Under the pieces are notes generated by a model. That model had not been told where the DNA came from and made no database searches. It was given only the letters and a program-made list of their open reading frames with translations. A stretch of DNA of 64,000 nucleotides from Terriglobia bacterium (GTDB taxonomy: Bacteria; Acidobacteriota; Terriglobia; 20CM-2-55-15): contig CAXWPJ010000002.1 in NCBI GenBank assembly GCA_963664115.2, forward strand, positions 96,001 to 160,000, given 5' to 3'. Below, piece after piece: positions 6,453-55,351 of this stretch. Made by a program: the position numbers and the translations under genes. Each line of letters starts with the position of its first letter. Within the stretch, counting starts at the first letter, position 1.

Positions 6453-8871
6453 CTCACTATTAAAATACTTAGTTTCTGTATTTTAACATTCTATATCTTT
6501 AGTAACTATTGAGATATTTGTACGAGTAGTAGGTTAGTTTCTTAGGCAAGTCTCGGACAAGTATTGACAAAAGTTTGTCCACGACGCGAAGGTTAGTTCT
6601 TGCGTAGTCAGTAAGTTGCGGCCGCCAGAGATTGAGCGTCGCGCACATGCACCCGTGCGCCCCTAAGTCGTTTGATGACTTGTATTTTAGGGGTATTTTC
6701 TGTCGCGTTAGCCAGTCTGTTGTTGCGAAGGAGTCAAAACTATGGCTGGCAGGAAGCAAGCCGTGGGCGTTCAAGCAATAGCGGCCCACACCAGACAGGA
6801 TGCTGGAATCTCCAAGGGATCTCCCGATACCCGCAGATTTTCCCGTTCGCGATCGAATTCCGGATTCGTAAGGCCGTCGCAATGCCTGGCCACCCGAATC
6901 CCACATCTCGATTTCTCCCTTCCAGCTATAAAGAATTCCTGGGAAATGCCGATGAGAGTGAAGACAGCCCGAAATACGTCTCCGGGCAATCTGGGTCCCG
7001 ATCGCAGAATCGGCCCGTTCAGATTGCCCCGAGGACTGTCCCTGCGGCGACCGGCTACGGTCCCGCAGTAATAACTTTCGAGATAGGGAGAAACGCATGA
7101 TGTTCGGTCTAAAAAAACTGCCTTCATTGATAGTGCTGGGCGCACTCTTACTACTACTGACACCCACTGTGGACGCTATAGCGCAGGATCGCGTGGAGGT
7201 CATTATTCAGTTCGACGGCCCTCCAGGACAAATCCGTCAGGCGATAGAATCACTCGGCGGCGAGGTCAAAGCGGAATACACGTACCTGGGATCCATGTTT
7301 GCTGAGGTACCCTCCGACTCGATGGATGCTGTCAAATCAGCGTCCGGTGTTAGTTCAGTGCGGAGAAACACTCCGGTCCATGCGCCCGAGCTCGTGTGGC
7401 CGTTCGGCGGGCGTGGCGTAGAAGCAGCCGCAGGCCTGGACCCGCTGGCGAACATCAACCACAACGGATTTACACCCATCACGGACATACAGGATTTCGC
7501 CGCAAGCAATTCGGGATCTTACCTGATGAATCATGCTACGGACGGTGTCCGGGCTTTGCACGCGGACGGCCTGACCGGTAACGGTGTGATTGTTGCAGTT
7601 GTGGACTCTGGCCTCCGACCCGTTTTCGACCACTTCGACCAGAATACTGTCGTCGTCGGATGTGAAGATTTCGTCGGCGATGGTCACGGCTGTAGCGACA
7701 ACCGGAACGACGGACACGGGACGATGGTCGCCGGTGCAATCGCAGCCGCAGCCGAGTTCCATTTTTCTAAAAACAGTCTATTTCTGCAGTCGGTCTTCTT
7801 TAACGCGAATGGTGCGTTACTGAATCGTAGACCCCCTAACAACGTCCCCGATACAGTCGCGATGATCGGAAGCGCCCCGGGTGCACAGATCTACGCCTTC
7901 CGAGTCTTCGGAAGCAATTCCGAACCGTCGGACACCGCAACTATCCTACTAGCGATCCAAAGGATTATCACCCTAAAGAATGAGGAGATGGTGGACATTC
8001 GTGTGGCGAACTTCAGTCTAGGTCGCCGAACGATTTATGCAGGCCTTGACGTCTTTGACACAGCGTTCGATGCTCTCCTTGCTAACGGAATCGTTCCTGT
8101 AGTCTCGACCGGTAACGCCGGTCCAGCGCTCCTGACGACGGCCAGTCCGGCGAGCGCCTTCAGCGCCATCGCCGTTGGCGCCGGAAGTCTTTTTCACCAG
8201 GACCGGATCGTGGGAGACCTGGGCTTCTTCGGAGCTACCGGACCCGCCGGTTTCGGCGACACGTTGCGTCCATTTGAAGGTGGACAGACAGCATGGTTCA
8301 GTTCACGCGGACCGAACGCCGACGGCCGGCAGGGACCAGGCGTCATGTCAGAGGGATTCGGTGTCTATGGGGCAGGTCTGGCAAGTCAGGGGAGTAAGCT
8401 TAGTCTCGGCATCGGTAGCAGCTTCGCAGCACCGAACGTTACCGGTATTGCGGCTTTGCTCTGGGAACATTTCGATAAGACAAGTAATACCCTCTCCCCT
8501 GTTGTGTCTGCCACAAAGATCCGGAACGCAATCGTCGGAAACGGCAACAAAATGATCATTGTCGGTGGCGAAACCGAAGACGATCAGGGGAATGGATGGG
8601 TAGACGCGAAGAAGGCCCGAGACAATCTGGGCGGGGCATCAGTGTTCCCACCGACCGCTCCCCCGACCGAAACTCTAGTAAACGACTATATTAAGAGGAC
8701 ATTGGCAGTTGTGGGATCTACAACACACCTTTTGAATCTGGAACCTGGCGACCGTCAAGATGTGATTTACAACGTCAATCCTGCAGATGCGGAACTAAAT
8801 ATCGAACTCTCTAGCATATTAGAAGTCGCCTGCGCTCCCGACCCAGAACCGTTCTTTGGCAACGAACTACT

Positions 8872-10256
8872 GAGTTATTGTCAAAAGTGGTGTTTAGGAG
8901 ATTGATTCAAGCGGCGGCCTGATCGACTTGTGTCGCTTCGACACCATCGTTGAATTTCACTCCGATGATTACCTTGCTCAGATCATCGAATCCTCGTAAT
9001 CGTCGCCAATTGTTCTCAGCGCACTGGCCCAGTTTGAACATCATGTGCAGCATGCCATCCCGTGTCAGGCAACCTCTGGATCGCTTCGTTCGGTGTCGAA
9101 TGGTGGCAAAGGTCGACTCAATGGGATTCGTCGTTCTGATGCTCTGCCAGTGCTTGGCCGGAAAGTCGTAAAAGGCCAGCAGTTCCTCTCTGTCTTTCTG
9201 CAGGCAGAGTGTGGCTTTCGGATACTTCGGTTCATAGGTTTCAATGAACAAGTCGAATGCCTTCTCGGCGTCTGCCTTCGTCTCGGCCTGCCAGATCGAG
9301 TGCAGGGCCTGTTTCGCCTTCGCCTGGACCGACTTGGGCAGGCAGTTGAGGACGTTCATGACTTTGTGCATCCAGCAACGTTGTTGACGTGTCTCGGGAT
9401 AGATTTCCTCCAGTGCGGCCCAGAACCCCATCGCACCGTCACCGATGGCCAACTTCGGAACATTCATCCCACGGGACTTCAGCTTCAACAAGACCTCGCG
9501 CCAACTCTGTGTCGATTCCCGTACACCGTCTTCGATCGCCAGGAAACGCTTCTCTCCGCGTTCATTCACGCCGATCACGACCAATGCACACAACTTGGTT
9601 TGTTCCGCCCGAAGTCCGCTGTAGATGCCGTCGGCCCAGACATAGACCCAGCGATCTGCATCCAAACGCTCCTCGCATCCGAGGCGGTACTGTTCGCCCC
9701 AAACCTGTTTCAACCGCGATACCGTGCTCGCCGACAGACCCTGCGCCTGGGGACCGACAAGAACTTTTAGGGCCTCACCCATCTCGCCGCTGGAAACGCC
9801 TTTCAAATACAACCACGGCACCGCTGCTTCCAGCGACTTCGTCTTCCGAATGTACGGTGGTACCAGGGCCGATCGGAACGTCACAGCTTCGCCCGTCTTG
9901 GCACGGACCTTCGGGATTTGGACTGTTACCGGACCCAATCCCGTCTGCAGTTCGCGTTCCGGCAGATAACCGTTGCGTACCACCCCGGCGTTTCCTGTCT
10001 CAGTTCGCCGGCCACCGTGCTGGGATAGCAGCTCTGCCAATTCGGCTTCCACTGCGCGTTGGATCAGTTGCTGTGCCCCAACTCGTAGTAGTTCTGTTAC
10101 TGGATCCTCAATCGTTTCTCGACCTTCCGGTCCATTCACGTTACTCTTGCTCACAGTGGCGTATCTCCTATGGTTGCTTTGAAGTTTTGTCACAACAAAT
10201 CAACCAGATACGCCGCTCTTATTCAATCCCTCAAACACCAGATTCGGTTATAACTC
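8872..10256 (-). mobile_element. IS256-family element, copy 2
   Basis: Same sequence as copy 1; ACGAACTAC duplicated at 8862-8870 and 10257-10265, plus an extra T at 8871. Confidence 0.95.
8907..10154 (-). CDS. IS256 transposase
   Basis: Protein identical to copy 1. Confidence 0.95.
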   Translation of the reverse strand: MSKSNVNGPEGRETIEDPVTELLRVGAQQLIQRAVEAELAELLSQHGGRRTETGNAGVVRNGYLPERELQTGLGPVTVQIPKVRAKTGEAVTFRSALVPPYIRKTKSLEAAVPWLYLKGVSSGEMGEALKVLVGPQAQGLSASTVSRLKQVWGEQYRLGCEERLDADRWVYVWADGIYSGLRAEQTKLCALVVIGVNERGEKRFLAIEDGVRESTQSWREVLLKLKSRGMNVPKLAIGDGAMGFWAALEEIYPETRQQRCWMHKVMNVLNCLPKSVQAKAKQALHSIWQAETKADAEKAFDLFIETYEPKYPKATLCLQKDREELLAFYDFPAKHWQSIRTTNPIESTFATIRHRTKRSRGCLTRDGMLHMMFKLGQCAENNWRRLRGFDDLSKVIIGVKFNDGVEATQVDQAAA

Positions 10257-10985
10257 ACGAACTACAGCTAGCCATCCACACCGTCAAGACATCCACGGTG
10301 GGGCCCACAGGACAGTATTATGACTTAAACCCAACTGAGGGATTTGAACAGGCCTTCATAGGACTGGATGATTTTGAAAATCCATCGGGTGTGTTCCCAG
10401 GCCGATGCACAGATTCGGACGGTCCCGGCCCTCTTCCCGGGATATGTTCTTTCAGCCTTTTGACTCCTGAGCCCGGACTCCTCCGCATCAGCGTCAGTGG
10501 CGCCACGACCAACGCCTGCAACATGTCGACCGACGCGACGATTGTGTCCACCATGGGAGACACTTTTTCTGCTGACCCACTGGATTATGGTACGGTTGCG
10601 GACGGTGGAACAGTAACTGTAGGGTCGATCGACGTACCGCAGGGAGCTCAAAAGATCGAGTTTGAGCTTTCCTGGATCAACGACTGGACACACTATAAGG
10701 GAAACGATCTGGAGCTTCAGGTGTTCCTACCCGGATTGAGTGTTCCATTGCCGTTCGGGCTCACTCTCGATGCTCCTGAAAGGTTTGAGGTGACTTCAGC
10801 GGCGTTGACTGCTCTGTTTGGGGGCCCCAAGACGGTACCCCTCGACGGAATATGGACCATAAAAGTTCAGGGGTTCGAGGTGAACGAGATGCCCGGAGAC
10901 TGGACACTTCGCGTGCTAGTCGACGGAGACGAGCCGGATTTGATTCCACCCACGCCTTAGCTGAAAAGGGCATTAAGTGTCTTAG

Positions 10986-12117: not shown

Positions 12118-12145
12118 ACTTGACATAATACTCATTATGCGACGT
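12118..12145 (-). other. dif: dif site (XerCD recombination site); left boundary of integrated element
   Basis: Minus strand ACGTCGCATAA-TGAGTA-TTATGTCAAGT versus E. coli dif GGTGCGCATAA-TGTATA-TTATGTTAAAT; 11-6-11 layout. Confidence 0.88.
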
Positions 12146-12177
12146 AAACTAGCTCCTACGCGACCCCGAAAGCCCCA

Positions 12178-12366
12178 CTATCGAGCCTTCCCAACTACGA
12201 TGTCCCCAGGCTCCAATTCGACCGCGTGGATCCCCGTAACCAAGATCTGGACCTGATCCCCCGTGGCAAGTCCCACAATATTTCTAACCCACCGTGGGAT
12301 CAGTCGTTTACGGTTATCCACTGGAAACATCCATTTCTTATTTAGAATCGGGAGTCGGCCTTCCAT
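12178..12366 (-). CDS. Small AbrB/MazE-like DNA-binding protein (tentative)
   Basis: RLIPRWVRNIVGLATGDQVQI resembles the AbrB IP..vR..lgl..GD.v pattern; ATG overlaps the upstream stop (TGATG). Confidence 0.5.
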   Translation of the reverse strand: MEGRLPILNKKWMFPVDNRKRLIPRWVRNIVGLATGDQVQILVTGIHAVELEPGDIVVGKAR

Positions 12367-12608
12367 CACGCCTTCTTCTCGCCCAAGAACTTCACGACAT
12401 ACATATCTGTTTCCATGTCCGAGGCTGGAGCCCAAATCACACGGACAGAACTTTCCAAACAACCGACTCGCCGTCGCACTTCCACAGGGTACGTCCCCAA
12501 CCCGTTTTTGCCGCAGGTCGCAAGTTCGATGTCGGACAGAGTAAATCGTTCCTTAAGCTGTTCCATGAATTTGTCCCGAGCACTCGACCCCTTCGGGCCT
12601 TTCTTCAT
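12366..12608 (-). CDS. Hypothetical protein, 80 aa
   Basis: Start and stop both overlap neighbouring frames, suggesting translational coupling. Confidence 0.55.
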   Translation of the reverse strand: MKKGPKGSSARDKFMEQLKERFTLSDIELATCGKNGLGTYPVEVRRRVGCLESSVRVIWAPASDMETDMYVVKFLGEKKA

Positions 12609-13099
12609 CCTGAATAGAACTCTAGTGAAGATGCGCGCAGATATGCGTCCCGGCCCCGCGATCCCGTCAGTAGGTTCCGGCTGGGTTCTTGCCGGATCCC
12701 GATGCGTGAGCCCTGGACGGGTAGTAGTGCAGCTTGAACGGCCCTTCTAGCGGTAACTCCGGACTGAACCGCGCCGGCGCTTTGCTTCGCTCTTTCGTAA
12801 CCCTCATAACTTTCTTCATCGATTTCAATCCTCTTGTGCGGATCCGAGAGCCGGCGCTGGATGGCCGGCCAAATATCGGGTCGAAAGGCACCGGTGCTGT
12901 CGAGCTCGCACTGGAGCTCCTGAGCACGTTGCGCTTGCCGTGTGAAGTGGTTTGGAAAAGACTGCCGGAGCCAGTCCAGGTCTTTGAGCTCGCGCTCAAT
13001 TTCCCGTCTTCGCTCCGGCGAAATTAGAGAGATTGGAGGCTTTTTGGGTAGGGTTCTGGCCGGATGTGGTGGTGAATTCGGCTCATACGCGCTTTTTGG
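12605..13099 (-). pseudogene. Open frame of 164 codons without a canonical start
   Basis: Manual translation ..SPERRREIERELKDLDWLRQSF..EFYSG*; its TGA overlaps the ATG at 12608. Confidence 0.35.
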
Positions 13100-13204
13100 T
13101 CACTTGCTCAAAGTTCAAATTGCATGTTGTCTCGGGCCTCGAAGGGTGCAACTTCCGAGGCCCTCTCTACGTCAACCGGTTTAGGACCGGCCCACCTCTC
13201 CCGT

Positions 13205-14589
13205 GAGTTATTGTCAAAAGTGGTGTTTAGGAGATTGATTCAAGCGGCGGCCTGATCGACTTGTGTCGCTTCGACACCATCGTTGAATTTCACTCCGATG
13301 ATTACCTTGCTCAGATCATCGAATCCTCGTAATCGTCGCCAATTGTTCTCAGCGCACTGGCCCAGTTTGAACATCATGTGCAGCATGCCATCCCGTGTCA
13401 GGCAACCTCTGGATCGCTTCGTTCGGTGTCGAATGGTGGCAAAGGTCGACTCAATGGGATTCGTCGTTCTGATGCTCTGCCAGTGCTTGGCCGGAAAGTC
13501 GTAAAAGGCCAGCAGTTCCTCTCTGTCTTTCTGCAGGCAGAGTGTGGCTTTCGGATACTTCGGTTCATAGGTTTCAATGAACAAGTCGAATGCCTTCTCG
13601 GCGTCTGCCTTCGTCTCGGCCTGCCAGATCGAGTGCAGGGCCTGTTTCGCCTTCGCCTGGACCGACTTGGGCAGGCAGTTGAGGACGTTCATGACTTTGT
13701 GCATCCAGCAACGTTGTTGACGTGTCTCGGGATAGATTTCCTCCAGTGCGGCCCAGAACCCCATCGCACCGTCACCGATGGCCAACTTCGGAACATTCAT
13801 CCCACGGGACTTCAGCTTCAACAAGACCTCGCGCCAACTCTGTGTCGATTCCCGTACACCGTCTTCGATCGCCAGGAAACGCTTCTCTCCGCGTTCATTC
13901 ACGCCGATCACGACCAATGCACACAACTTGGTTTGTTCCGCCCGAAGTCCGCTGTAGATGCCGTCGGCCCAGACATAGACCCAGCGATCTGCATCCAAAC
14001 GCTCCTCGCATCCGAGGCGGTACTGTTCGCCCCAAACCTGTTTCAACCGCGATACCGTGCTCGCCGACAGACCCTGCGCCTGGGGACCGACAAGAACTTT
14101 TAGGGCCTCACCCATCTCGCCGCTGGAAACGCCTTTCAAATACAACCACGGCACCGCTGCTTCCAGCGACTTCGTCTTCCGAATGTACGGTGGTACCAGG
14201 GCCGATCGGAACGTCACAGCTTCGCCCGTCTTGGCACGGACCTTCGGGATTTGGACTGTTACCGGACCCAATCCCGTCTGCAGTTCGCGTTCCGGCAGAT
14301 AACCGTTGCGTACCACCCCGGCGTTTCCTGTCTCAGTTCGCCGGCCACCGTGCTGGGATAGCAGCTCTGCCAATTCGGCTTCCACTGCGCGTTGGATCAG
14401 TTGCTGTGCCCCAACTCGTAGTAGTTCTGTTACTGGATCCTCAATCGTTTCTCGACCTTCCGGTCCATTCACGTTACTCTTGCTCACAGTGGCGTATCTC
14501 CTATGGTTGCTTTGAAGTTTTGTCACAACAAATCAACCAGATACGCCGCTCTTATTCAATCCCTCAAACACCAGATTCGGTTATAACTC
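13205..14589 (-). mobile_element. IS256-family element, copy 3 (inside the dif element)
   Basis: 9-bp TSD CTCTCCCGT at 13196-13204 and 14590-14598. Confidence 0.95.
13240..14487 (-). CDS. IS256 transposase
   Basis: Protein identical to copy 1. Confidence 0.95.
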   Translation of the reverse strand: MSKSNVNGPEGRETIEDPVTELLRVGAQQLIQRAVEAELAELLSQHGGRRTETGNAGVVRNGYLPERELQTGLGPVTVQIPKVRAKTGEAVTFRSALVPPYIRKTKSLEAAVPWLYLKGVSSGEMGEALKVLVGPQAQGLSASTVSRLKQVWGEQYRLGCEERLDADRWVYVWADGIYSGLRAEQTKLCALVVIGVNERGEKRFLAIEDGVRESTQSWREVLLKLKSRGMNVPKLAIGDGAMGFWAALEEIYPETRQQRCWMHKVMNVLNCLPKSVQAKAKQALHSIWQAETKADAEKAFDLFIETYEPKYPKATLCLQKDREELLAFYDFPAKHWQSIRTTNPIESTFATIRHRTKRSRGCLTRDGMLHMMFKLGQCAENNWRRLRGFDDLSKVIIGVKFNDGVEATQVDQAAA

Positions 14590-14660
14590 CTCTCCCGTTG
14601 CTCGTCGGTTCAGAACCGCAGAGCGGGAAATCTTTAAACTTCATCTATGGAACACACAAA

Positions 14661-14900
14661 ATGACTAATCCTGACGTAAAAATCGTGAGTGAAGAAGTGC
14701 TGTTGCAGCGAGTTTGGAACAACAATGAAGCTACAGCCTCCCAAATGGAATTAGATGACCGTCGGACCGAGAAGCTGATCAAGTCAATAGAGAAACTGAA
14801 CAAAACTACAACGCGGTACTCTCGCATTTTGGCTCTGTTGACCTTAACTATCCTCATTCTGACCATCGTTCTTGTGTACGATCTCCCTACGATCACGTGA
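14661..14900 (+). CDS. Small coiled-coil protein with C-terminal TM helix
   Basis: MTNPDV..EKLIKSIEKLNKTTTRYSRILALLTLTILILTIVLVY; AT-rich. Confidence 0.65.
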   Translation: MTNPDVKIVSEEVLLQRVWNNNEATASQMELDDRRTEKLIKSIEKLNKTTTRYSRILALLTLTILILTIVLVYDLPTIT

Positions 14901-14908
14901 CCTTGAAT

Positions 14909-15109
14909 TCAAAACAATCTCCCCTGAAGCTTGCCGGCCTCATGCTCAGCCAGGAAGCAGCGCCAACACTGAAACATCTGGACTACCTTTCCCGGCCTGC
15001 CGTGGAACCGCTCACACTGAGGACACCAGAATTCGCACTCGACGGTGGACGGAGTTTTCAACCGCTGGGAACTGCCCTGTTCCTGTTTGAAGGTTTCCAT
15101 GCTCGACAT
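14909..15109 (-). CDS. Small zinc-ribbon protein
   Basis: CPQC...CWRC motif; G-rich RBS. Confidence 0.55.
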   Translation of the reverse strand: MSSMETFKQEQGSSQRLKTPSTVECEFWCPQCERFHGRPGKVVQMFQCWRCFLAEHEAGKLQGRLF

Positions 15110-15261
15110 GAACACCCCCGCCCGACCTACCTAAAATCTCGAATTGGATCACGCGGCCCGGTCGGGCGTTGCGTCCAAATGAGGAACAACACGCCGAACA
15201 AAATCACGGCATCCCGAAAAAGCTTCTTATCCATGCTCGACATGAACACCCCCGCCCGACC
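15096..15261. repeat. 32-bp exact direct repeat pair
   Basis: TCCATGCTCGACATGAACACCCCCGCCCGACC at 15096-15127 and 15230-15261. Confidence 0.9.
15127..15243 (-). CDS. 38-aa hydrophobic peptide
   Basis: MSSMDKKLFRDAVILFGVLFLIWTQRPTGPRDPIRDFR*; same initiation region as the zinc-ribbon ORF. Confidence 0.45.
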   Translation of the reverse strand: MSSMDKKLFRDAVILFGVLFLIWTQRPTGPRDPIRDFR

Positions 15262-15289
15262 GAATTTGGTCTGTTATAATTTCGGGGCG

Positions 15290-15489
15290 ATGGAGATTCG
15301 CAAGAACTGCTCGCACACCTCGAAGAACGCGCCACAGTCCATCTTGTCGGTCCGTTTCTCGCCGGCGGCCGCACGGCCGCTGATTGCCTCATAAAAAAGG
15401 CCTATAAGGACTCTGTTCTCGTTGCACTGACAGACGGGAAATTGGCTCAGTTTCCGTACTCCAGCATCGTCGCCATCGTGTATAGCTAA
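15290..15489 (+). pseudogene. Possible Sm/Hfq-like small protein with a 1-nt frameshift
   Basis: ELLAHLEERATVHLVG..CLIKKAYKDSVLVALTDGKLAQFPYSSIVAIVYS*; ATG 15290 is out of frame by one base; TATAAT at 15275-15280. Confidence 0.35.
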
Positions 15490-15513
15490 GCCCTAAGCTC
15501 CTGTGGATAAAAG

Positions 15514-15541
15514 ACTTCGCAAAATACTCATTATGCGACGC
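15514..15541 (-). other. Degenerate dif copy; right boundary of integrated element
   Basis: Minus strand GCGTCGCATAA-TGAGTA-TTTTGCGAAGT: XerC arm and spacer conserved, XerD arm degenerate. Confidence 0.8.
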
Positions 15542-15599: not shown

Positions 15600-16610
15600 A
15601 TGCCTCTCACAGATACACTCCAGCGTCCCCTCCGGGACCTTCGGGTTTCCGTCACCGACCGCTGCAACTACCGTTGCAACTATTGCATGCCCCTGGACGA
15701 GTATGTCTGGACCGAAAAATCAGCCCTCTTATCGTTCGAAGAGATCACGCGACTCGCTTCAATTTTTGTTCGCCATGGCGTCGAACAGATTCGATTGACC
15801 GGTGGCGAGCCTCTGGTGCGCCAGAATCTTCCCGAACTGGTCGCTCGTCTGACAGAACTAGATGGATTGCGCGATCTGTCACTGACAACGAACGGGTCCC
15901 TCTTGACAGCGCGAGCCGCCGAACTTCGGCGTGCCGGCCTCAATCGGATCAACGTGAGCCTCGACACGCTGCGCGCAGATCGTTTTCTCAAGTTGACCAA
16001 ACGAGGCGATCTCGCTGAAGTGCTGACCGGAATTCAGACCGCCCGCGAGGTGGGCTTCAAGACGATCAAGATCAACGCCGTCGTGATCGAAGGCGTAAAC
16101 GAGGATGAAATTATTGATCTCGTCGATTATTCCAGAGCGGAAGGATTGGAAATTCGCTTTATAGAATTTATGGATGTCGGTAACGCGAACGACTGGAGCC
16201 TCAAGCGCACGGTGTCCAAGAAGAAAATTCTTCAGACGATTCAATCGCGGTACCCCTTGAAAGAAGTTGGCCACCGGAACGGCCGTGCGCCCGCCACGGA
16301 ATACGAGTTTCTGGACGGCATCGGATCGGTCGGCATTATTGGTTCAGTTACCGAACCGTTCTGCTCCAGTTGCACCCGGGGACGTCTGACTGCAGACGGC
16401 CGGCTTGTCACCTGCCTTTTCTCAGAAACAGGTTTCGATCTGAAATCATTGCTTCGTGGTGGAGAAAGCGACGAAGCGATCGCAAGCGCAATCAATTCGG
16501 CATGGAGTAAGCGCCAAGACCGATACTCCGACGAACGTTGGAAGGCGCTTCAGTCGGGCAACTACCTCGACAGTGGCAGGAAGATCGAGATGATCACACT
16601 CGGGGGTTGA
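15600..16610 (+). CDS. moaA: GTP 3',8-cyclase MoaA
   Basis: LRVSVTDRCNYRCNYCMP radical SAM motif, FCSSC cluster, C-terminal MITLGG. Confidence 0.95.
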   Translation: MPLTDTLQRPLRDLRVSVTDRCNYRCNYCMPLDEYVWTEKSALLSFEEITRLASIFVRHGVEQIRLTGGEPLVRQNLPELVARLTELDGLRDLSLTTNGSLLTARAAELRRAGLNRINVSLDTLRADRFLKLTKRGDLAEVLTGIQTAREVGFKTIKINAVVIEGVNEDEIIDLVDYSRAEGLEIRFIEFMDVGNANDWSLKRTVSKKKILQTIQSRYPLKEVGHRNGRAPATEYEFLDGIGSVGIIGSVTEPFCSSCTRGRLTADGRLVTCLFSETGFDLKSLLRGGESDEAIASAINSAWSKRQDRYSDERWKALQSGNYLDSGRKIEMITLGG

Positions 16611-16994: not shown

Positions 16995-17177
16995 TTACCG
17001 TTTCTTCTTGGCTTTCTTCTTCGCTACTTTCTTTTTGGCTTTTTTCTTAGTCGCCTTTTTCTTAGTAGCTTTCTTCGTGGTCGCCTTCTTCTTTGTAGCT
17101 TTCTTCTTGGCGGCCTTCTTCTTCACTACTTTCTTCTTGGCCGCCTTCTTTTTAGGCGCCTTCTTTTTTGTAGCCAT
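16995..17177 (-). CDS. Lysine-rich histone H1-like protein, 60 aa
   Basis: KKKAA/KKKAT repeats; GGAG RBS. Confidence 0.75.
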   Translation of the reverse strand: MATKKKAPKKKAAKKKVVKKKAAKKKATKKKATTKKATKKKATKKKAKKKVAKKKAKKKR

Positions 17178-54454: not shown

Positions 54455-55351
54455 TCATGCACGCGGGTGGTGATCCTGATAAATCTGTTTTAGTCTTTCC
54501 CGAATAACGTGGGTATAAATCTGAGTGGTCGAGATGTCTGCGTGTCCCAGCATCATCTGGACGGAGCGCAGGTCAGCGCCCCGTTCCAGCAAATGTGTTG
54601 CGAAAGAATGCCGCAGCATGTGCGGCGTGACCTTCTTTTCGATCTTGGCGCGTTTCCCGTGCCCCCGCAATATCAGCCAGAAGCCTCCCCGCGTGAGGGC
54701 TTGGCCTCTATAGTTAAGAAAAAGACTCGGGCTCGTCTTCTTGGGACGTCCGCGATCGATGTAATCACGAACGGCCTCTGCGGCGGTCTCCCCTAAGGGA
54801 ACTATTCTTTCCTTGCTCCCTTTTCCCATCGAGCGGACAAAACCGTTTTCCAAATCGACGGAATCCATGGTCAGGGCAACAAGTTCGGAAACTCGAAGTC
54901 CCGTGGCGTAGAGCACTTCGAGCATCGCTCGATCTCTAAGCCCCCTAGGTCCGGAAACGTCAGGCGCTCCCAGGAGACGGTCGACTTCGTCAAAAGTCAG
55001 AAAGTGAGGGAGGGGTTTCCAGGCTTTGGGTACATCGACTGCCGAGGTCGGATTTTCTTCGGTAGCGCCATCGAGGATCAGGAATCGATACAGTCCGCGA
55101 ACCGCGCTCAGAGCGCGGGCGGCCGAACGGGCTTTTAATCCATGATCGTACAGAAAGCTTAGAAACGCGGAAACACCCGTTGCCCCCACACCGAGCACAT
55201 CGCGCTTATCCAAGTACTCTAAGTACAGCGTAAGATCGCGGCTGTAGGCACCGACCGTGTTCGCGGACAGCCCTTTCTCAATTCGAATGTACTGGATGAA
55301 ACGGTCGACCCACTGATCGTTCGTCACCGAATGATTCGCGGCGGATGTCAT
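54455..55351 (-). CDS. xerD: Tyrosine recombinase XerD
   Basis: RDRAMLEVLYATGLRVSEL, PHMLRHSFATHLL, LGHADISTTQIYTHV and HHPRA motifs. Confidence 0.93.
   Translation of the reverse strand: MTSAANHSVTNDQWVDRFIQYIRIEKGLSANTVGAYSRDLTLYLEYLDKRDVLGVGATGVSAFLSFLYDHGLKARSAARALSAVRGLYRFLILDGATEENPTSAVDVPKAWKPLPHFLTFDEVDRLLGAPDVSGPRGLRDRAMLEVLYATGLRVSELVALTMDSVDLENGFVRSMGKGSKERIVPLGETAAEAVRDYIDRGRPKKTSPSLFLNYRGQALTRGGFWLILRGHGKRAKIEKKVTPHMLRHSFATHLLERGADLRSVQMMLGHADISTTQIYTHVIRERLKQIYQDHHPRA

Follow-up and report, generated by a model that had tools for sequence, protein, structure and literature searches.

A recombinase-free 2-kb insert in the predicted dif site of a Terriglobia bacterium, with the attachment-site layout of TLC/GGI-type elements

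Integrative mobile elements exploiting Xer recombination (IMEXs) reside in the chromosomal dif site without a recombinase of their own, in hosts that possess both xerC and xerD, and are flanked by two hybrid sites, one of them canonical, at a position that is empty in relatives. Here we describe a 2-kb unit with these general features in a 64,000-nucleotide stretch of DNA (hereafter the window; GenBank assembly GCA_963664115.2, contig CAXWPJ010000002.1, positions 96,001 to 160,000) from a member of the class Terriglobia, in line with the acidobacterial host that a first-pass annotation had thought probable. TLC-phi and the gonococcal genetic island (GGI) share a design in which the XerC arm and spacer of the attachment (att) site are kept and the XerD arm is divergent (PMC5357621). 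XafT-driven recombination of TLC-phi needs one of the first and fifth innermost XerD-arm bases (PMC9226527), a Xer activator may be an element's own or act in trans (PMC6744903; 10.64898/2026.06.12.731946), and in GGI the weak arm blocks FtsK-driven excision (PMC5357621, PMC9765430). XafV shares only 18 % with XafT. A dif-type provirus kind with double-jelly-roll capsids has been described in Vibrio (PMC12715192), its use of host recombinases being left open (PMC11630473), and predictions of dif exist for three Acidobacteria (PMC3025954). Judged from titles and the openings of abstracts, we found no report of an IMEX at dif in Acidobacteriota, a negative that data tabulated in the supplements to PMC12715192 and PMC3025954 may qualify.

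Like TLC-phi of Vibrio cholerae (PMC6744903, PMC9226527, PMC5357621), the unit is small, lacks a recombinase and lies at dif with a divergent XerD arm, which keeps both the first and the fifth innermost XerD-arm bases. Unlike the unit, TLC-phi encodes an HUH rolling-circle Rep and XafT (helix-turn-helix plus DUF3653) and excises, none of which was found here, whereas the weak arm of the unit drifts towards the XerC arm and its host belongs to the Acidobacteriota. With GGI and LME-1 of Legionella (PMC5357621, PMC9765430) it shares a flanking pair of one canonical and one modified dif, the modified site being tied to stable integration in those elements, and GGI is, like the unit, without XafT. 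GGI differs in its 57 kb and its type IV secretion system, against 2 kb and no recognised transfer genes here, and LME-1 in using the single recombinase XerL. CTX-phi and VGJ-phi (PMC5357621; 10.64898/2026.06.12.731946) likewise use dif without an integrase, but the unit has no second inverted att, no spacer mismatch and no inovirus genes. Judging from its sequence, the unit would work like an IMEX of the TLC/GGI type, with a XerC arm and overlap like those of dif and a divergent XerD arm, while belonging neither to the TLC-phi family proper nor to the CTX or VGJ type. The first-pass annotation had proposed a new class of mini-IMEX using host XerCD at dif; the att layout fits the use of host XerCD, but it is that of the published TLC/GGI design and does not call for a new class. 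We consider it probable that the unit is a recombinase-free dif insert that integrated through host XerC and XerD by the TLC/GGI route and is now a locked, vertically inherited and eroding relic.

The insert is bounded exactly by two 28-mers in direct repeat, 3396 bp apart, both of them already located by the first-pass annotation. With arms assigned by likeness to the Vibrio dif motif (PMC12715192), the two sites have identical 6-bp spacers, which also match those of the congeners G001, G002 and G003; their XerC-side arms differ at the outermost base only and their XerD-side arms at three of 11 positions. Subtraction of an insertion sequence (IS) of the IS256 family with its target duplication (1394 bp) leaves a unit of 2002 bp, as previously calculated, and IS-free alleles in sequencing runs X3 and X8 show that the subtraction is real. 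The GC content of the unit is 0.536 against a genome mean of 0.567, and 6 % of the 2-kb windows in the genome are equally low. The earlier statement that the unit holds no integrase held up in a recombinase search, in which controls scored 1e-154 and 1e-18 and all frames of the element E>0.5. Neither a VGJ-type overlap, with a spacer differing from dif on the XerD side, nor a CTX-type second inverted att about 90 nt away, as in a folded single-stranded attP, was present, the latter by arm scan and DNA folding at both ends.

The left site is, on the evidence of score, linkage and position, the true chromosomal dif, as the first-pass annotation had it. An arms-only matrix built from the moaA-linked sites of 20 relatives was scored over the 4.9-Mb host genome (G000), in which the left site ranked first (37.1 bits) and the right site second (17.4 bits); this genome-wide score rules out a chance resemblance of the left site to dif. 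The moaA locus was retrieved from 24 of 34 other genomes of the family. A single dif-like site stood just upstream of moaA in 20 of these, within the moaA-matching span and not upstream in two (G018, L020:1311-1338; G008, L026:3650-3677) and twice in one (G002), with none shown in the last. In all three relatives assembled as a single contig the distance from the site to dnaA was 49, 53 and 52 % of the chromosome. GC skew in the host genome was +0.015 to the left and −0.035 to the right of the site, a weak sign change nearby, and octamers resembling FtsK-orienting polar sequences were distributed 9:3 on the left and 9:16 on the right, the expected lean at small counts. Besides its moaA-linked dif, G019 has another dif-like site whose XerD-side arm is partly degenerate; it lies on a short contig with mobile-looking genes (C235; L118:345-372).

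An empty dif beside moaA, which the first-pass annotation had suggested seeking in relatives, was present in three of four congeners (G001, G003 and G004). The spacing between site and moaA is 56 bp in the empty congeners and 58 bp here, and likeness of the left flank reaches about 100 bp from the site in G001 and G003. The dif of G004 (L117:8957-8984) has a spacer unlike that of the other four genomes of the genus at three of six bases, which would bar elements having the common spacer. In the fourth congener, G002, 11,198 bp lie between a near-canonical and a degenerate site (L015:1831-13056; G002:C2:3801330-3812555), so that the same dif is an IMEX target in the genus. This second insert lacks a tyrosine recombinase and encodes a replication-type protein with a DnaA N-terminal domain, a topoisomerase-like protein, a transglycosylase, a packaging-type ATPase (PHROG E=1e-15), small genes and a capsid-like protein of 377 amino acids (aa; P2_C E=0.003, P2_N E=0.045). 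The capsid-like protein had no sequence match in the PDB, and a 41 %-identical homologue of it matched P2_N at E=2.7e-5, just under the cut-off. Its gene content makes the G002 insert a likely tailless provirus of the PM2-type, dif-type double-jelly-roll kind. Like the PM2-like dif-type prophages of Vibrio (PMC12715192, PMC11630473), it combines the absence of a recombinase with an ATPase, a capsid-like protein, a transglycosylase and a regulator-like gene at its end. The window unit has the site and an AbrB-like end gene in common with those prophages but lacks capsid, ATPase and Rep genes, and its end regulators are AbrB-like rather than of the P16/RstR and P15/XafT kinds.

In both inserts the gene at the XerC-arm-side end is small, points at the site and has an AbrB-like pattern, although the likeness between the two end genes is not significant (profile E=0.14). 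An apparent likeness of the flanks under loose gap costs vanished under strict ones. The weak arm in G002 keeps the first innermost XerD-arm base only, and 760 bp in from the left end of its insert there is a third site resembling the XerC arm, with a different spacer. With the G002 element in circular form, transcription of the end regulator gene would run on across attP and into the replication gene, so that integration would separate the early genes from that promoter. The window's host genome had no match to the G002 capsid. The only capsid match among 400 genomes of the phylum (G224, E=7e-4) lay in a host region without other viral genes and was set aside, and scans of IMG/VR with the capsid, its homologue, their alignment and proteins P0004, P0026 and P0002 confirmed nothing. 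One ORF (open reading frame) of another small element in the host genome (L101:11013-15953; C9, 636-641 kb) shares 43 % identity across 53 aa with a gene of the G002 provirus; that element carries an integrase, a Xis-like helix-turn-helix protein, a rolling-circle Rep-like ORF (PF23343), DUF669 and a Zn ribbon.

Two intact orphan sites elsewhere in the host genome (C2:750682 and C9:952963) carry the XerC arm of the element exactly, a spacer that is the same or one base off, and the same C-like bases at arm positions 5 and 6. Since both share these features, the weak arm is better read as a trait of the element than as local decay. All three weak arms, those of the right site and the orphans, keep the first and fifth innermost host XerD-arm bases while neighbouring bases vary. 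Each orphan unit spans about 900 bp (L001:8170-9075; L002:8548-9478) with the 5' half of ssb and one variable small ORF, and the two share a 330-bp stretch of 93 % identity. They were not found in the 34 family genomes. Other assemblies contain the L002 ORF in near-identical form, in one case on a contig of 5.4 Mb. The orphan units seem to be fragments that were captured from larger elements belonging to the same att family. They are bounded by a palindrome that also occurs upstream of a pair of recombinase and IS91-type transposase genes. This imperfect repeat of about 37 bp has 151 copies in the genome against none in two shuffles (for example L168:315-356, C1:92856); its copies are clustered, mostly in direct orientation 0.4-8 kb apart, and are also found in congeners. 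One copy stands upstream of a tyrosine recombinase (six equal-scoring copies) followed by the IS91-type transposase, and the palindromes are likely IS91-like ends bounding captured cassettes. The first-pass annotation had also pointed to a near-palindromic attP, with 9 of 11 positions matching; the figure is correct, but the left site alone already reaches 8 of 11, and the idea of two XerC arms is thin for that reason. The recurring C-like arm bases nevertheless give it some interest.

Entry by some route other than Xer, with the second site a decayed duplicate of dif, would be compatible with a genome rich in transposons and with the fact that no recombination was observed. We regard it as very improbable, given that the insert ends exactly at both 28-mers, that a different element in G002 shows the same layout and that the weak arm recurs at two other places together with the XerC arm of the element.

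Few of the genes of the unit (Table 1) resemble anything described. The 62-aa ORF, called as a protein in other assemblies and weakly matching a PHROG antitoxin (E=0.14), is likely a small regulator; its AbrB-like label, from a match below the cut-off, is a lead only. The 80-aa ORF gave no family match in Pfam, PHROG or NCBIfam, nor did the 160- and 240-aa forms described below. A search with it returned 19 rows, 18 of which were long repeat-rich proteins dismissed as repeat artefacts, and its Atlas matches (0.81-0.82) are at lead level. Searches with the 160/164-aa form and with the small beta-rich ORF recovered only their own alleles, the former without a usable Atlas match. What had been described as a start-less frame of 164 codons is an ATG-started gene of 160 aa from which, in the window strain, one base close to the start is missing, and a programmed frameshift was dropped from consideration because the one-base allele was seen. 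The 79-aa ORF is likely a coiled coil with a membrane anchor. For the possible Zn ribbon and the 38-aa ORF no called protein was on record at the two starts tried for each. The Sm-like frame begins with ATG in all five covering runs, the window having five extra bases there; its Sm/Hfq label is a lead only, from Foldseek rows with E>1 (Hfq rows 1.5-3) on a model with a pLDDT (predicted local distance difference test) of 48. Single-sequence models were poor (pLDDT 48 and 36), Foldseek gave no match at E≤0.001, the best VIA-align Z was 2.8, and a predicted complex of XerD with two copies of the 62-aa protein scored 0.00 and gave no verdict. Promoter and terminator counts in the unit were at shuffle level.

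Table 1. Features of the unit and of related host loci; positions refer to the window unless a contig is named
Feature	Position	Strand	Basis or remark
Left att site, regenerated canonical dif (predicted)	12118..12145	−	37.1 bits, best in genome
Left site, host XerD arm	12118-12128		followed by the spacer
Left site, element-derived XerC arm	12135-12145
62-aa AbrB-like ORF	12178..12366	−	points at XerC-side arm; TIGR01439 E=0.013, below cut-off
80-aa ORF	12366..12608	−	start/stop overlap with both neighbours; AbrB-like pattern by eye only
160-aa ORF	12605..13086	−	start frameshifted in window strain; no homologue beyond alleles
IS256-family element with target duplication	13196..14598	−	IS 13205-14589, 1385 bp; later passenger between divergent gene groups
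79-aa ORF, hydrophobic C-terminus	14661..14900	+	from sequence; called in other assemblies; PHROG of unknown function, E=0.015, weak
66-aa ORF, two CxxC motifs (possible Zn ribbon)	14909..15109	−	sub-threshold matches; reality uncertain
Two exact 32-bp direct repeats	15096-15127, 15230-15261		each contains a minus-strand ORF start
38-aa hydrophobic ORF	15127-15243		between the two 32-bp repeats
Small beta-rich (Sm-like) ORF	15290..15489	+	points at degenerate arm; out of frame in window
Right (second) att site	15514..15541	−	same spacer as left site
Right site, degenerate XerD-side arm, element-derived	15514-15524		1.8 bits versus 15-21 in 19 of 20 relatives
Right site, host XerC arm	15531-15541
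Host moaA-like gene, conserved right flank	15600..16610	+	label from sequence and first-pass annotation
Host xerD	54455..55351	−	TIGR02225, 367 bits (cut-off 329.6)
Candidate xerC	C9:863231-864190		on another contig

In profile searches no HUH rolling-circle Rep was matched by any unit ORF or allele (Pfam, PHROG, NCBIfam) and no capsid or packaging ATPase gene was recognised in the unit, the lack of recognisable Rep and capsid genes having been noted before; the 160/240-aa ORF might still be a very remote Rep. As to the XafT-like activator that the first-pass annotation thought possible, there was no DUF3653 (PF12375) match in the unit ORFs, or in six frames of the host genome at E≤1. A check for a remote activator beside attP gave models of pLDDT 36-48 and fold searches without a clear match. 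The unit ORFs had no match in IMG/VR, phages or plasmids, and of the 42 viral, seven genome and 17 metagenome stretches picked out by pattern scans none had a homologue of a unit ORF or a second site. The 62-aa query was not found in the 34 family genomes (best other match E=0.027), and the 80-aa query gave three weak matches in 400 genomes of the class, two with internal stops and none convincing. One 70 %-identical homologue of the 80-aa ORF was located on a 548-bp contig, so the family extends beyond the host species. Runs labelled as sponge metagenomes had shares of 0.13-0.24, from which we claim no habitat, and no RNA run was listed as containing the sequence. Further to the right in the window, a 60-aa ORF rich in lysine and alanine (16995-17177) resembles histone H1-like proteins, as judged by eye.

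Seven sequencing runs from four studies were compared with the window as Logan contigs. Contigs spanned the left junction in six and the right in five of the seven, at the depth of the flanks. The circular attP junction that the first-pass annotation proposed looking for was absent, as was an empty-site joint, among the joints listed (97 % likeness, four runs), which comprised the IS-free allele only; such contigs drop rare variants. The IS is present in the window, X1, X2 and X5; it encodes a Mutator-family transposase (PF00872), is flanked by a 9-bp target duplication (13196-13204 and 14590-14598) and has about 50 further near-full copies in the genome. One of these (8871-10256) breaks a subtilase gene at 7097-10960 of the window, also with a 9-bp duplication. 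The start of the 160-aa gene is in frame in X2, X5 and X8 and out of frame in the window, X1 and X3, and a frameshift in X5 fuses the gene to the 80-aa gene (240 aa, P0026). We favour the split state of this pair as ancestral because of the overlapping stop and start codons and the 79-aa homologue. In X8 the 160-aa ORF contains a pair of loose ends, one of which matches the end of a repeated mobile element, and the Sm-like ORF has 5 bp duplicated. Outside the IS four substitutions were listed, against multiple frameshifts and insertions. These lesions suggest relaxed selection on part of the unit in this small sample and, being several and independent, favour a relic over an active satellite. 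Each of the four combinations of IS presence or absence (13205) with start in or out of frame (13073) is represented (X1, X2/X5, X3, X8), a pattern suggestive of recombination between strains or of recurrent events. X3 and X5 also share loose ends at 12895 and 12981, where other contigs follow the 160-aa gene for part of its length before diverging, and one of them ends in a strong hairpin not found in five genomes of the genus; these could represent a related element or a spacer array.

Taken together, the history we consider probable would begin with a circular double-stranded element whose attP had a good XerC arm, the host spacer and a degenerate XerD-side arm, a design that we infer from the two hybrid sites and the two intact orphan look-alikes. 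One crossover with dif, aided by an activator of the element's own or in trans, would have rebuilt the canonical dif on the left and placed the weak site beside moaA, which is the layout observed. The weak arm would then block excision by FtsK/XerCD, as has been reported for both GGI and TLC. Since no gene for replication, a capsid or an activator was recognised in it, the unit would persist passively under relaxed selection, while frameshifts and insertions such as those seen piled up. A larger parent, such as a tailless virus like that of G002 or an ssb-carrying replicon, seems somewhat likelier than a satellite born small, the preference staying slight because no parent was found. Origin as a decayed fragment of a larger known prophage, which the first-pass annotation had set against its own proposal, was not shown, no ORF matching the G002 provirus or IMG/VR, yet still leads among the origins.

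Several observations weigh against this history. Neither a parent element nor a deletion junction was found, and no unit ORF matches the G002 provirus by tblastx. ORFs cover 1666 of the 2002 bp and the three minus-strand genes have overlapping starts and stops, both of which fit a compact working unit, and the 62-, 80- and 79-aa ORFs have no indel in any covering run. The five extra bases in the Sm-like ORF of the window are absent from all runs and could stem from an assembly error, some runs possibly come from the very sample that yielded the window, Logan contigs drop rare variants, and X12 covers neither junction, its letters being unlike the window before 15566. On arms alone the orphan sites score 17.1 and 14.2 bits, not clear of a background of 15.8, and stand out only when spacer and flanks are counted. 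Finally, the skew inversion that the first-pass annotation expected at dif is present but weak, with its peak 8 kb or, with IS masked, 23 kb to the left of the site.

The compact layout bears most directly on whether the unit is instead a complete and competent non-autonomous satellite, with 2002 bp its natural size, a tailless virus of the G002 kind its likely helper in excision, replication and packaging, and a small ORF that may activate Xer. Dense and coupled genes, intact-ORF alleles, the IS-free allele in X3 and X8 and a homologue at 70 % identity showing a wider family would all suit such a satellite, and related sequence may be present in the same samples, to judge by the loose ends at 12895 and 12981; the likely helper type occupies the same site in G002, and XafT can act in trans (PMC6744903). 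We nevertheless think it unlikely: different strains show repeated lesions, the joints listed in four runs include neither a circle nor an empty site, the host genome has no capsid homologue and no DUF3653, no origin or Rep was recognised, and the searches of family and class genomes with the 62- and 80-aa queries were negative or unconvincing. Less probable again is the fuller version in which the 2002-bp unit is a complete replication-less mini-IMEX from a family of the genus, its attP XerD arm turned XerC-like, served by a new non-DUF3653 activator among its small genes and spread as a satellite by tailless PM2-like viruses that occupy this site in Acidobacteriota.

The indel-free state of the 62-, 80- and 79-aa ORFs could also reflect a domesticated cassette, kept by the host, whatever its mode of arrival, because the end regulators or the membrane ORF protect it, by immunity or defence, from viruses that target dif, the remainder decaying. 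The unit was present at junctions in four studies, defence and toxin-antitoxin genes abound in the variable loci of dif-type phages (PMC11630473), and there is the weak antitoxin match noted above. Short ORFs are, however, small mutational targets, the alleles are too few for a selection test and none of the six unit proteins had a PADLOC match, and we hold domestication to be improbable. For the 2-kb unit as such, a relic state is the likeliest.

In sum, the inserts described here add the Acidobacteriota to the hosts of dif hijacking and, likely, of dif-type tailless proviruses. Degenerate XerD arms occur here without DUF3653, a gap that is also open for the gonococcal island, and the genus is therefore suited to seeking another Xer activator. 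For that search, the G002 provirus would be a better subject than the 2-kb unit.

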